Source: Candidatus Latescibacterota bacterium (GTDB taxonomy: Bacteria > Latescibacterota > UBA2968). Taken from it: a stretch of DNA of 64,000 bases. The notes beneath the pieces were generated by a model, which was not told the DNA's origin, searched no databases, and was given only the letters and a program-made list of their open reading frames with translations. Shown here one piece after another: positions 47,215-51,479 of this stretch (within the stretch, counting starts at the first letter, position 1; every line of letters begins with the position of its first letter). Made by a program: the position numbers and the translations under genes. The stretch covers positions 5,984,001 through 6,048,000 of the forward strand of contig OZ242311.1 of the NCBI GenBank assembly GCA_965207885.1, read 5' to 3'.

Positions 47215-50200
47215 GTGATGGACTTGCGGAGATGGATAATTATTTTTGCAGGGGGTGTGATAGGCATGGTCAATGCGGCGATGGCACAGAATACACCGTG
47301 GCACTACAGTTTTGAGGAAACGACGCTGTCGGCGGCCTATCGGGCAGATGCGGGTAGTCAGGTTTCGCTTTCGACGAGACGTTATAAGGCGGGGCAGCAA
47401 TCTCTGAAGTGGGCATGGCAGAATAATGGGCGGCTTGTGTTCACGGATCCGGCAACACAACGCAATCGGACGCTGAACGGTTTTCGGGCGTGGGTGTACA
47501 ACGAGGAGGCGCTCGATGAGGTGCTGACGTTTGGGTTTGGTACGGAATCTGAGTTGTCGGCAAATAATCCGCGTTACCGGTTTGAGTTTGGTTTGAATTT
47601 TACGGGCTGGCGGGCGATGTGGATCAATTTGGAAGATGATGCGCGGAATAATTCTTATACGGGTCCGAGAAATGGGCGTGTGACGGCGTTTGAAATCCGT
47701 GCGCCGAATGGTGGAACTGTGTATCTGGATCTGGTGGAATTGGTGGAGAGAATTCATTTCAGGCGATCTCCCGATGCACAGGTTCCATTTGTGAATGGAG
47801 GTATAAATACAAGTGGCGAGAGAACCCGCGAATACAGATGGAGTCTGAATACATTGCCGGGTCCGCTTCCTTTGCAGATCACTGATGATGAACGGAGGGC
47901 TCTTGAGACGATTGCGGCGCGATATGAGGCGTGGGTTCTGGGTGATGGGGTGAAAGATGATCAGCGGGAGCCAGTGAGGATTCGGCTCAATGAACTTACA
48001 GCATACATAAGGCGCGGGCATCGCAATCTCGCAGATTACGAGATTCGGCGGGAAGATGACCGCATTTTGGGAAAGCCTCTGTTTGCAGCCCTTTCACCCT
48101 ACAGGCCCTATTTTCAGAGTGTTTTTCAAAATGTTTTGTTGCGTCTGGTGCTGGATTATCGGTTGAATGGCAATGAGGAGGCCAAAGATCGCGTGATAGA
48201 TGTTTTCGATTATCTGCACGATCAGGGTTGGGCAGAAGGCAGTGGTGTTGGCGCGATGCATCACGAGTTTTTACGGATTGCGAGCTATGCGCATGCGGTG
48301 TATTTGATGCGGGATGTTTTGGGTGATACGAATCGACTGGAACGGGAATTGGCGAGTTTGAAATGGTATAGCATGTTTGGCGAGTTGTATGAACAGACCT
48401 GGGATCCGGGCACGAATGCAGATTTTTTGCGTTCGGTGGCGATGTATCGGTTGTTGTGCATTTTGATGATGGACGATTCGCCCGAGAAGGTGGCGAATAT
48501 GCATCGCTATGTGGCGTGGTTGAATAATGCGCTATCTATTGCACCTGGCTGGCTGGATACGATTAAGCCGGATTTTGTGGGTTTTCACCATCGGGGTATT
48601 TACGCCAATGCGTATGCGCCAAACGCCTTTCACGTGGCTTCTGTTCTGGTGTATTTGTTGCACGATACGCCTTTTGCGGTTGCAGATGATAAGCGCGATA
48701 ATTTGAAGCAGGCACTGTTAACAGCCAGAGTTATGACGAATACGTATGATATTTCAACGGCCATTAATGGGCGCTTTCCGCTTAATACAACGGTAACGGA
48801 TGGTCTTTTGCCGGCGTATATGTATGTGGCTTTGAGTTATCCTTCGGTGGATGCGGAATTATCGGGCGCGTTTATGCAGCTTTGGAGACCTCAATCGCAG
48901 TTGCTGATAGAAGGTTTGTTTGAACAGGTAGCTTCTCGGATCATGTATTTGCACACGCCGGGTGCGATGCAGATGATGGCGGATTTTGCAAGTGCGGGAT
49001 ACCCACCTATTGCTGTGCCTTCTGGTCACTGGACATTGCCTTATGGCGCGTTGTCCATTCATCGGCGTGGAGACTGGATGGTGAGCATGAAGGGATGGAG
49101 CAAATACGTGTGGGATTACGAGTCGTCATCTGGCGGAGAAAATCAACTCGGTCGTTATTTGAGCTATGGTTCGATGCTGATTTACGGCAGTGGCGATCCG
49201 GTCACGCGTGAGGCGAGTGGGATTGTGCGGGATGGGTGGGACTGGAGCATGTGGCCCGGTACGACGGTGATTCGCCTGAGTCATGAGCAGCTCAAACACG
49301 AGGGGCGCGATCGCAATTTTTCGGATGAGACTTTTGTGGGTGGGGTGAATATAGAAGGGCAGAATGGTGTGTTTGCGCTGAAGTTGCACGATACGAGATT
49401 CAATACGAGTTTTCGGGCGGTTAAGACGGTGTTCTGTTTTGACGATGTGATAGTTTGTCTGGGTTCTGGTATTGAGAATGATGATGGTGGGCATGCGACT
49501 GTGACGCCGCTGTTTCAGGCGTCTATCTCTGAAGATCGGCCTACGGGAGTGAATGGGGAAAATGTGCGGGGGATTCCTTATGCGTTTTCGGGGACAAAGG
49601 GGCAGAGGGCCTGGGTAATGGATTCACGGGGCAATGGGTATGTGATTCCAGATGGGGGCGACTTGCGGGTGCAGCGCCAGGTACAAACTCCTGGAGATTT
49701 TGGCAGCGAGGGTGGTACAGGAACTTTTGAATTGGCGTATCTGGATCACGGTCCTATGCCTCAGGGTGCGTCATATCACTATGCCGTGCTGGTTCAGAGG
49801 TCGCCTGATAGGGTGCGTGCGTTTGCGAGTGCGCCGGAATACGATGTTTGGCAGCGAGATCATCAGGCACATATCGTGCATCATCGCGGGATGAAGATGA
49901 CGGGCTACGCGCTGTTTGAGACGGATGCGAGGCCGACAAATGGTCCGGTTGAGGCTGTATCTTTGCCGAGTTTGGTGATGACCCGCGAGATAGGTGATGG
50001 GTTATTGCTTTCGGTGGCTGATCCGGATTTTGGGTGGAGCTGGGAGATCCAGACGCCGCATCGGCAGGATGGTTCGCTAATTGTCAATCAGGCGAGTATG
50101 CCCCGGAAGGTAGAGGTGACAGTGCGCGGAAAATGGCGTTTGGATCAGTCCTATGATCTGGTAGAGATTGTAGAGGAGAACGAGGATCAGACGGTTGTGG

Positions 50201-50496
50201 CTTTTATTTGTCAGGATGGCGAGAGCGTAGAGGTGAAACTGATATCGGGAATAAGTGTGAGTGTTGCAAATCTGGATTTTGATGGGGACGGTGTGATCGG
50301 CATAGGGGATTTTTTGCTTTTTGCCAGTAAATTTGGTCTGTCGGAGGGTGATGCGGGTTTTGAAGCAAAATACGATCTGGATGGCAATGGCATAGTGGGA
50401 ATCAGCGATTTTCTGATTTTTACACAGGGATTTGGTAAACCGGTGGGTGGAAAGCCAGTGGCTCTCCGGAATGGAGGAGAAAGATTGGGATCGTGA
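47215..50496 (+). CDS. Chondroitin ABC lyase-like polysaccharide lyase (PL8) with C-terminal EF-hand/dockerin-like domain
   Basis: LNFTGWRA, DQGWAEGS, KPDFVGFHH...AY, GRYLSYGS, GWDWSMWPGTT; C-terminal DFDGDG and DLDGNG loops. Confidence 0.85.
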   Translation: MMDLRRWIIIFAGGVIGMVNAAMAQNTPWHYSFEETTLSAAYRADAGSQVSLSTRRYKAGQQSLKWAWQNNGRLVFTDPATQRNRTLNGFRAWVYNEEALDEVLTFGFGTESELSANNPRYRFEFGLNFTGWRAMWINLEDDARNNSYTGPRNGRVTAFEIRAPNGGTVYLDLVELVERIHFRRSPDAQVPFVNGGINTSGERTREYRWSLNTLPGPLPLQITDDERRALETIAARYEAWVLGDGVKDDQREPVRIRLNELTAYIRRGHRNLADYEIRREDDRILGKPLFAALSPYRPYFQSVFQNVLLRLVLDYRLNGNEEAKDRVIDVFDYLHDQGWAEGSGVGAMHHEFLRIASYAHAVYLMRDVLGDTNRLERELASLKWYSMFGELYEQTWDPGTNADFLRSVAMYRLLCILMMDDSPEKVANMHRYVAWLNNALSIAPGWLDTIKPDFVGFHHRGIYANAYAPNAFHVASVLVYLLHDTPFAVADDKRDNLKQALLTARVMTNTYDISTAINGRFPLNTTVTDGLLPAYMYVALSYPSVDAELSGAFMQLWRPQSQLLIEGLFEQVASRIMYLHTPGAMQMMADFASAGYPPIAVPSGHWTLPYGALSIHRRGDWMVSMKGWSKYVWDYESSSGGENQLGRYLSYGSMLIYGSGDPVTREASGIVRDGWDWSMWPGTTVIRLSHEQLKHEGRDRNFSDETFVGGVNIEGQNGVFALKLHDTRFNTSFRAVKTVFCFDDVIVCLGSGIENDDGGHATVTPLFQASISEDRPTGVNGENVRGIPYAFSGTKGQRAWVMDSRGNGYVIPDGGDLRVQRQVQTPGDFGSEGGTGTFELAYLDHGPMPQGASYHYAVLVQRSPDRVRAFASAPEYDVWQRDHQAHIVHHRGMKMTGYALFETDARPTNGPVEAVSLPSLVMTREIGDGLLLSVADPDFGWSWEIQTPHRQDGSLIVNQASMPRKVEVTVRGKWRLDQSYDLVEIVEENEDQTVVAFICQDGESVEVKLISGISVSVANLDFDGDGVIGIGDFLLFASKFGLSEGDAGFEAKYDLDGNGIVGISDFLIFTQGFGKPVGGKPVALRNGGERLGS

Positions 50497-50513: not shown

Positions 50514-50557
50514 AACAAACAAAAGCCGCCACATTATGTGGCGGCTTTTGTTTGTTG
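50514..50557. terminator. Bidirectional terminator
   Basis: AACAAACAAAAGCCGCCACAT-t-ATGTGGCGGCTTTTGTTTGTT. Confidence 0.8.
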
Positions 50558-50833
50558 TTACTCAGAATGCGACTTGTCCCAAATGGGTTTTACTTTTTCG
50601 ATGACTTCAGCATCAGTCGGGCTGGATGCGACGATGTTTGTAAATTCTTCAGCTTCAACTCCGAGTTCCTCCAGGAACTTTCTGTCAGCTGGTCACGGAT
50701 AGACGTAGTCACCGATGCAGCCTCGCAATTTGGCGCGGGCTTTATCCGTAATGCGCGGGAGCCAGGGCATGTCGCCCATGTAAAGCTGACGGCTACGCGG
50801 TCTAAAATCGACGGCGGAACTGAGTTTGTCCAT
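50558..50833 (-). CDS. DUF5069-like small protein with in-frame TGA (probable selenocysteine)
   Basis: GAAGGAGG RBS; MDKLSSAVDFRPRSRQLYMGDMPWLPRITDKARAKLRGCIGDYVYP[TGA]PADRKFLEELGVEAEEFTNIVASSPTDAEVIEKVKPIWDKSHSE; hairpin after the TGA. Confidence 0.75.
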
Positions 50834-50906
50834 TGTAGATCCCTCCTTCAAGTATAATGGCTTTTACAATTGTTAAAACATAGTGATTTTGGCGATGGAT
50901 AGCAAG

Positions 50907-51479
50907 TTAGAAAGTAAGGGTGTATGTGCTCAATGTTGTGTCGCCGTATTTTTTTTGTCGGGAGAGGATGAGGCTGGGAAAGGATTTTGGTAGCGTTGTA
51001 CGAGAGGCGTGTTGTACGAGAATGCGTGCATTGGGCGCGAGTATCGGAGATGTTGCGAGGCGGGTGAGTATGGTGCAGGACATAGGGTGTCCGTCTAATT
51101 GTTGGTGATAGGGAGGGTCGAGGTAGATGATGTCGAATAGGGCTTTTACATGCGCGAGTTGGGGCAAGAGTTTTTGCGCGGGACGCGCGTAAAGATAGAT
51201 GCGGTCGTTGAGATGCCAATTGTCTATGAGCTGTGCGATGAAGCGGTTGCAGCGGCGGTCGGGTTCATTGATGACTACCTGAGCGCCGCGGCTACAGGCT
51301 TCGAGGCCGATTTGACCAGAGCAGGAGAAGAGATCGAGGAAATATTTGCCGCAGAGGATTTCGCCCAGAGAAGAGAATACGGCTTTTTTGACAAAGTCGG
51401 ATGTGACGCGGGCATTGCCGTGCTTTTTATTGTTAAAGGGGATGCGGCGACCCTTAAATTCGCCAGCGATGATGCGCAT
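50907..51479 (-). CDS. rsmD: 16S rRNA m2G966 methyltransferase family
   Basis: MRIIAGEFKGR, LDLFSCSG, SRGA, DPPY, YGDT. Confidence 0.88.
   Translation of the reverse strand: MRIIAGEFKGRRIPFNNKKHGNARVTSDFVKKAVFSSLGEILCGKYFLDLFSCSGQIGLEACSRGAQVVINEPDRRCNRFIAQLIDNWHLNDRIYLYARPAQKLLPQLAHVKALFDIIYLDPPYHQQLDGHPMSCTILTRLATSPILAPNARILVQHASRTTLPKSFPSLILSRQKKYGDTTLSTYTLTF

Follow-up and report, generated by a model that had tools for sequence, protein, structure and literature searches.

A short-form DUF5069 gene with an in-frame TGA in a Latescibacterota bacterium very probably encodes a selenoprotein

A 91-codon frame interrupted once by TGA

The locus studied here raises one question: does a TGA codon in the middle of a short minus-strand frame end the protein, or is it read as selenocysteine (Sec)? 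The window, by which we mean the whole 64,000-nucleotide stretch analysed, comes from a Candidatus Latescibacterota bacterium (assembly GCA_965207885.1, contig OZ242311.1, positions 5,984,001 to 6,048,000 of the forward strand). An earlier sequence-only reading had pointed to a minus-strand gene that is missing from the open reading frame (ORF) track and consists of 91 codons with one TGA at codon 47. We recovered this gene as described; the TGA is the sole interruption of the frame, and translation with TGA read as Sec (U) gave the 91 residues quoted in that reading. The ribosome-binding site, the terminator and the hairpin that it had claimed were also found in their places (Table 1).

Table 1. 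Features of the Sec gene and its surroundings (positions in the window)
Feature	Position	Strand	Remarks
Shine-Dalgarno-like site GAAGGAGG	50842..50849	-	8 nt 5' of the ATG; read from the sequence
CDS, candidate 91-residue Sec-containing short-form DUF5069 protein	50558..50833	-	ATG 50833-50831, TAA 50560-50558; translated with TGA = U
In-frame TGA, codon 47, putatively read as Sec, context YVYP-U-PADR	50693..50695	-	Cys in the orthologue and family column
SECIS-type hairpin, +13 nt from the TGA	50664..50679	-	AGTTCC 50679-50674, TGGA 50673-50670, GGAACT 50669-50664
Terminator-like GC-rich hairpin and T-run	50515..50545	.	12 nt past the stop codon; from the sequence and a consensus scan of both strands

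In the ORF list made with translation table 11, the gene appeared only as fragments, such as a 52-aa ORF (50693..50851) that ends at the TGA. The SECIS-type hairpin doubles as the coding sequence for K-F-L-E-E-L, and an Rfam search returned nothing on it. A convergent 1093-aa ORF (47215-50496, plus strand) ends opposite the Sec gene. The terminator-like hairpin lies between the two genes and was read as a terminator on both the plus and the minus strand, so it is probably common to both. Rfam matches on this second hairpin were below threshold (best Thr_leader, 31.9 against 55 bits) and look like chance.

The read-through protein matched Pfam DUF5069 (PF16798) with 60.8 bits (cut-off 27, E = 2e-16), and this was its only Pfam match. 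The match comprised residues 12-83, and the sequence is conserved both before and after the TGA; in a six-frame search of the genome, PF16798 scored 56.1 bits for the Sec gene. When a 91-member family profile was compared with solved structures, one match was obtained (E = 6.5e-44), PDB 3omd, an uncharacterised 145-residue protein from Leptospirillum rubarum that has Cys at the site aligned to Sec47 and runs about 55 residues beyond the end of the 91-residue protein. The Pfam match is limited to profile positions 4-75, and the full 133-position domain is not covered by the 91-residue protein. As judged from this alignment, the Sec protein is therefore a short-form DUF5069 subfamily without the C-terminal third present in 3omd.

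The DUF5069 family has at least 414 cluster representatives at E <= 0.001. We counted residues in 194 aligned domains of 180 proteins, which included 150 of these representatives. The column aligned with Sec47 held Cys in 142 domains, Ser in 21, 'W' in 5 and other residues in 13, and the residue was missing in 13. The hallmark family motif is G-D/E-Y-x-Y/F-P-C-P-x-D, and UGA codon 47 falls exactly at the Cys that most of the family has there. The Cys motif 'Y.Y.CP.D', which the sequence-only reading had given for DUF5069, was thus borne out by the alignment. The near-invariant family residues were P12, R13, L25, R27, D30, K31, R33, A34, G41, C/U47, D50 and D74.

The missing and 'W' rows of this column were traced further. 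Among the 13 rows with a missing residue, 12 were proteins that end exactly at ...YP, and four such truncated proteins end immediately before the TGA in orthologue loci. One 'W' protein (P0005) is the orthologue locus L041 with the TGA read as W, and the remaining four 'W' proteins presumably have the same cause. Public protein sets thus contain three wrong forms of the gene, namely products cut at the TGA, with spurious N-terminal extensions, products with Trp at the Sec column and a frameshifted product; these misannotated copies are among P0003-P0006, P0012, P0023, P0030, P0032 and P0033. The frameshift is in P0033, from a 367-kb contig, after residue about 29.

Two further DUF5069 genes were found in the same genome. 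The first (C1:2503276-2504091, L017/L018) encodes a 284-aa tandem two-domain protein, in which domain 1 is without the Cys and domain 2 has YIYN-C-PID; the second (C1:2933094-2933390, L020) encodes a 149-aa DUF5069 protein without the Cys. Larger proteins, of about 435-445 aa, are present in related genomes and have the DUF5069 domain two or three times.

The TGA codon and the hairpin in orthologues

We surveyed 61 related genomes, and 53 of them had an orthologue-level match (hand count). Exactly one in-frame TGA was present in 50 of the 53 orthologue genomes and none in three (G011, G018 and G059). Six genomes (G013, G032, G042, G053, G057 and G058) had paralogue-level matches only, G022 had only fragments at contig ends, and G055 had no match. 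A scan of one genome per species gave 123 encoding stretches, 80 of which were kept. The pooled orthologue set comprised 110 locus rows, corresponding to 83 distinct sequences that were colinear over about 88-91 residues. Their hosts were Latescibacterota, Gemmatimonadota and Poribacteria metagenome-assembled genomes (MAGs) and one Opitutales MAG.

At the Sec column, the 83 distinct sequences carried TGA (66), TGC (11) or TGT (6), and TGG was found in none of them. The TGA forms came from many independent assemblies and extended down to about 50% protein identity. Homologues were expected to show Cys here if the TGA encodes Sec, and Cys was indeed present in 17 of the 83 orthologue sequences, in addition to the 142 family domains counted above. 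Within the genus of the window, 18 of 20 sequences had TGA and two had TGC; both of the latter had a damaged hairpin, and close relatives therefore gave no sign that the TGA should be corrected to TGC or TGT.

A quick maximum-likelihood tree was built from 79 of the 83 sequences, with the Sec column masked and with L108, L109, L111 and L121 left out. It required at least five Sec/Cys changes, of which well-supported branches alone force two; these numbers come from only 90 columns, with many forks unresolved and an arbitrary root. The genus of the window, with its 18 Sec and two Cys forms, was recovered as a clade (SH-aLRT 97).

Bacterial SECIS elements lie just 3' of the UGA at a characteristic spacing and carry a G in the apical loop, as described by the bSECISearch model. 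The hairpin at codon 47 had a minimum free energy of -14.2 kcal/mol (z = -0.98), and 31 of 200 shuffled sequences folded at least as well. Its folding energy alone is not beyond chance, and its significance comes from its conservation. All 66 TGA forms share the same 12 nt at +18 to +29 (TTCCTGGAGGAA), four of them wobble sites. These same four sites were conserved at 0.41-0.76 in the 17 Cys forms, and other wobble sites in the TGA forms at 0.3-0.7.

Pairing in a 7-bp helix was then examined in the TGA forms, for which there were 57 distinct segments. In these, 91.5% of the helix cells were paired, compared with 10-59% when the 3' partner was slid. The five inner stem pairs were intact in 57 of 57 segments, and one stem pair was G-C in 49 and C-G in eight and was never unpaired. 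The covariation score was reached by none of 500 shuffles, a figure to be read with the relatedness of the sequences in mind, as the relatives are not independent. The G-C/C-G exchange is compensatory; because it is confined essentially to one clade (8 of 57), it may represent a single event.

The Cys forms had 69.7% of the helix cells paired, and one core pair was broken in 10 of the 17. As the residual pairing shows, the conserved peptide F-L-E-E accounts for some of the complementarity. In the window's genus, the two Cys forms each had a different stem-breaking substitution, and both of their genomes retain selA and selB. This looks like a recent, gene-specific replacement of Sec by Cys, followed by decay of the hairpin that was no longer needed. 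The hairpin is thus conserved in its core, with a pair that changes on both sides, across the TGA forms and is not maintained in the Cys forms.

A possible lower stem (CAGCT/AGCTG) suggested by the sequence-only reading fared less well. The lower helix, tested as alignment columns 8-13/44-49, was paired to 71.9% in the TGA forms and to 73.5% in the Cys forms; its sole hint of covariation was the wobble pair 12-45, paired in 37 of 57 TGA and in 6 of 17 Cys forms. Since its pairing fails to discriminate TGA from Cys forms, the lower stem is not established and its specificity for Sec is unproven.

Decoding machinery and the weighing of other readings

The genome contains a full set of genes for Sec decoding, a check that the sequence-only reading had named. 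SelA (575 bits), SelB (386 bits) and SelD (369 bits) were all found above the curated cut-offs. The selA and selB genes are adjacent (C1:4303107-4306366), and selD is located at C1:5699073-5700198 (L014); both loci are outside the window. SelD itself contains Sec at its classical site (SCGG-U-ASKL), and a tRNA-Sec with anticodon TCA, detected by aragorn, lies about 100 nt downstream of selD on the same strand. The selD hairpin, which we used as a same-genome control for the bSECIS rules, starts 13 nt after the selD TGA and has a GGU loop; its geometry is the same as that of the DUF5069 candidate. Among the related genomes, selA was found in 57 of 61; by hand count, 49 of the 50 whose orthologue has the TGA possess it, the exception being G050, which is 80% complete and in 820 contigs. 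Neither selA nor selB was found in G059, which has the Cys form and a completeness of 86%.

With these components, decoding would follow the standard bacterial route, in which SelB acts together with a SECIS hairpin. SelB carrying Sec-tRNA(Sec) would bind the 6-7 bp hairpin with the loop UGGA, 13 nt downstream of the UGA, and Sec would be delivered to the ribosome at UGA codon 47 in place of termination. This genome's own selD would be decoded in the same way. The candidate resembles known SelB/SECIS-decoded genes such as selD and fdhF in that an in-frame UGA is paired with Cys in homologues and a hairpin with a G-containing apical loop stands immediately 3' of the UGA. It shares with the same-genome selD the distance of 13 nt from UGA to stem, in a genome with selA, selB, selD and tRNA-Sec. 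It differs from known genes of this kind in its unusually rigid SECIS core, with 12 invariant nucleotides across three phyla.

Three other readings of the TGA were weighed. It could be decoded as a residue other than Sec, either by a code in which TGA means Trp or Gly (like tables 4 or 25) or by near-cognate readthrough with Trp or Cys. We consider this very unlikely, although database proteins P0003-P0006 and P0012 have W at the column and the inserted residue cannot be told from sequence alone. TGA is the commonest stop codon of long ORFs in the genome, ending 1233 of 2984 ORFs of at least 300 aa, which indicates that it is not generally reassigned. The W protein that equals a TGA locus read with W points to a choice of the gene caller, and TGG is absent from the 83 DNA sequences. 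Homologues align Cys with the TGA, neither Trp nor Gly, and the full Sec machinery is present together with a hairpin like that of selD at identical spacing.

A still smaller chance is given to normal termination at the TGA, with a functional 46-residue N-terminal peptide and a conserved downstream stretch that acts as an RNA element or a separate peptide. Bacterial Sec decoding is usually inefficient, so that some truncated product probably arises too. The downstream half, however, shows protein-level conservation in the frame of the upstream half, and the Pfam and 3omd alignments continue through the TGA. The Cys forms are contiguous, and variation falls at third positions. The ORF list held neither a start codon nor a ribosome-binding site for a same-frame downstream ORF, and the fold predicted by modelling would need helices 2-4, all of which lie past residue 47.

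Sequence errors were addressed with contigs of four other runs aligned to the locus. At the TGA and throughout the 16-nt hairpin, the contigs were free of differences. The CDS had 21 variant places, all at codon position 3, 10 of them 5' and 11 of them 3' of the TGA. Two RNA-library contigs from one study, X18 and X19, covered 50569-50863 and 50595-50852, respectively, and bridged the TGA. Their extent is almost exactly that of the Sec gene, which hints at transcription, but only weakly: DNA may be present in such libraries, and neither transcript ends nor translation can be read from contigs. Positions that lack contig cover carry no information.

The search of runs returned 23 rows with part of the stretch, from 11 studies. 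Contigs 95-99% or more alike to the locus occurred in runs labelled sponge metagenome (DNA and metatranscriptome), and one marine metagenome run had a contig 90-95% alike to it; the runs concerned are X5, X18 and X19.

The chance that the TGA is a nonsense mutation in a pseudogene or a miscalled TGC or TGT, so that no full-length protein is made, is negligible: the gene is split under table 11, the frameshifted copy P0033 tells that such assemblies do carry errors and TGC occurs in two same-genus genomes, but 66 of 83 distinct sequences, drawn from many independent assemblies, have TGA at this codon, all 11 variant places 3' of it are at the third codon position, the hairpin is perfectly conserved in TGA forms only, and independent DNA and RNA-library contigs are unchanged at the TGA.

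The proposal of a Sec-containing DUF5069 member was therefore supported; the tests that the sequence-only reading had suggested for overturning it were run, and none spoke against Sec. Taken on the comparative evidence, the locus very probably holds an intact gene of the expressed type, whose product is a 91-residue selenoprotein of short-form DUF5069.

The sequence-only reading had not counted DUF5069 among the classical selenoprotein families, and comparison with catalogues agreed with it. Table 1 of a 2026 review (PMC13188914) lists 119 selenoprotein families and subfamilies, each with a domain identifier. Neither PF16798 nor a YP-U-P/G motif is in that table; elsewhere in the review, too, '5069' does not occur as a domain number, nor do the strings YPU, PUP and PUG. 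No NCBIfam model matched the read-through protein at E up to 1. In the portion of the deep-Sep report covered by the comparison (PMC12013277), none of the nine new families corresponds to PF16798; the supplementary lists of deep-Sep and of BSepDB (PMC13326102) lie outside this comparison. A full-text literature search returned no paper on 'DUF5069', and for 3OMD, among the matches listed, the string was only an unrelated abbreviation. The sequence comparisons indicate that this is almost certainly a genuine Sec-encoding gene that uses the ordinary bacterial mechanism and belongs to a family outside the catalogue (Table 1 of PMC13188914 and NCBIfam).

Predicted structure and possible role of Sec47

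An AlphaFold2 (AF2) model of the protein was confident, with a mean pLDDT of 89.6, and consisted of a short beta-hairpin and four helices (residues 25-37, 48-57, 61-70 and 74-89). Since helix 2 starts at residue 48 in this model, Sec47 is predicted to cap the N-terminus of helix 2. The model and 3omd were superimposed by VIA-align with Z 12.6 and an rmsd of 2.0 over 84 residues, and Foldseek gave E = 2.7e-4 and TMq 0.78. The fold searches found nothing beyond 3omd; the next best hits were at E = 3.2 (Foldseek) and Z 4.0 (VIA-align), the latter a level common for helical proteins. The candidate is thus like Pfam DUF5069 and 3omd in its match above the cut-off, in the hallmark motif with U for C and in its fold over 84 residues, and it differs in being short (91 residues) and in having Sec instead of Cys. 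This membership explains nothing about activity, because the family is without known function.

We looked for a partner of the selenol within the protein. No UxxC or CxxU motif was found, and no Cys lies within three residues of Sec. Among the 66 Sec forms, a second Cys was present at position 39 only in 18, at position 71 only in 24 and not at all in 24; none had Cys at both positions. Cys39 and Cys71 may be facultative, interchangeable resolving cysteines in some lineages, or they may be there by chance. The 18 Sec forms with Cys39 are all in the genus of the window, where codon 39 lies at about 50719-50717 and codon 71 at about 50623-50621. Conserved basic and acidic residues occur elsewhere in the sequence (R13, R27, K31, R33, D30, D50 and D74). 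Ser occupies the Cys column in 21 of the 194 family domains, and a thiol is therefore not a general requirement of the DUF5069 family.

Selenoproteins with a thioredoxin fold and a UxxC or CxxU motif (Trx, Grx, Prx-like, DsbA-like and SelW-like) resemble the candidate in being small, in having Sec at a helix N-cap and in the exchange of Cys and Sec. The candidate, in contrast, is modelled as all-helical with four helices and has no UxxC or CxxU, and 24 of its 66 Sec forms have no other Cys.

Gene context gave no partner that is consistent across clades. An RsmD-like methyltransferase gene is upstream of the Sec gene in four Latescibacterota-type loci (L051, L081, L079 and L082); in the window, a 190-aa ORF (50907-51479, minus strand) 73 nt upstream has the same position and length as the RsmD-like gene (Pfam Cons_hypoth95) of L051. 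The pheA gene lies directly downstream of the Sec gene in eight Poribacteria-type loci. A fusion of glutaredoxin and a pyridine nucleotide disulfide oxidoreductase was found directly upstream in L108 (1752-2975), L109 (1756-2979) and L111 (1753-2979), which belong to one tight Poribacteria-type clade only. Domain fusions were similarly varied. Of 38 longer DUF5069 representatives, three carried Cupin_2, and single cases carried a NuoF-like FMN/4Fe-4S module, an AI-2E transporter, a methyltransferase or a dienelactone hydrolase; the rest had tandem DUF5069 domains or nothing else. This mixture is too diverse to indicate a function.

Sec is costly to encode, and in known selenoproteins it is almost always at the chemically active site. 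The conserved Sec/Cys pair therefore points to the functional residue of DUF5069. Because gene context and domain fusions are inconsistent, we claim only a site with a single reactive Sec. In such a 1-Cys-type site, the selenol would be the chemically active residue, and a thiol system of the cell, not an intramolecular CxxU pair, would recycle it. We consider the chances about even that this single Sec provides the reactive selenol, in a site that is either redox-active or binds a ligand, metal or metalloid, with an external reductant.

A broader proposal is put forward tentatively, as one that may well prove wrong. Short-form DUF5069 proteins could be an uncatalogued selenoprotein family of Latescibacterota, Gemmatimonadota and Poribacteria from marine and sponge metagenomes, in which a lone selenol at a helix N-cap sits in an all-helical, non-thioredoxin fold beside a conserved Arg/Lys patch and carries out a one-Sec redox reaction, or an oxyanion- or metalloid-handling reaction, without a described counterpart. 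If true, this would be the first clue to the function of DUF5069 proteins in general, with the orphan structure 3omd among them.

The decoding of this gene is mechanistically unsurprising, and the comparative case is very clean. The rigid SECIS core across three phyla, together with its decay in two recent Sec-to-Cys converts, offers a clean case from nature of a coding sequence that is also constrained at the RNA level. The analysis also exposes a systematic misannotation of the Sec gene in public protein sets, with truncated, Trp-containing and frameshifted copies. With this gene, the prokaryotic selenoproteome would gain a family beyond the catalogue of PMC13188914 and reach into poorly studied candidate phyla. 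For an orphan family with at least 414 cluster representatives and a solved structure, Sec47 marks the probable active residue.
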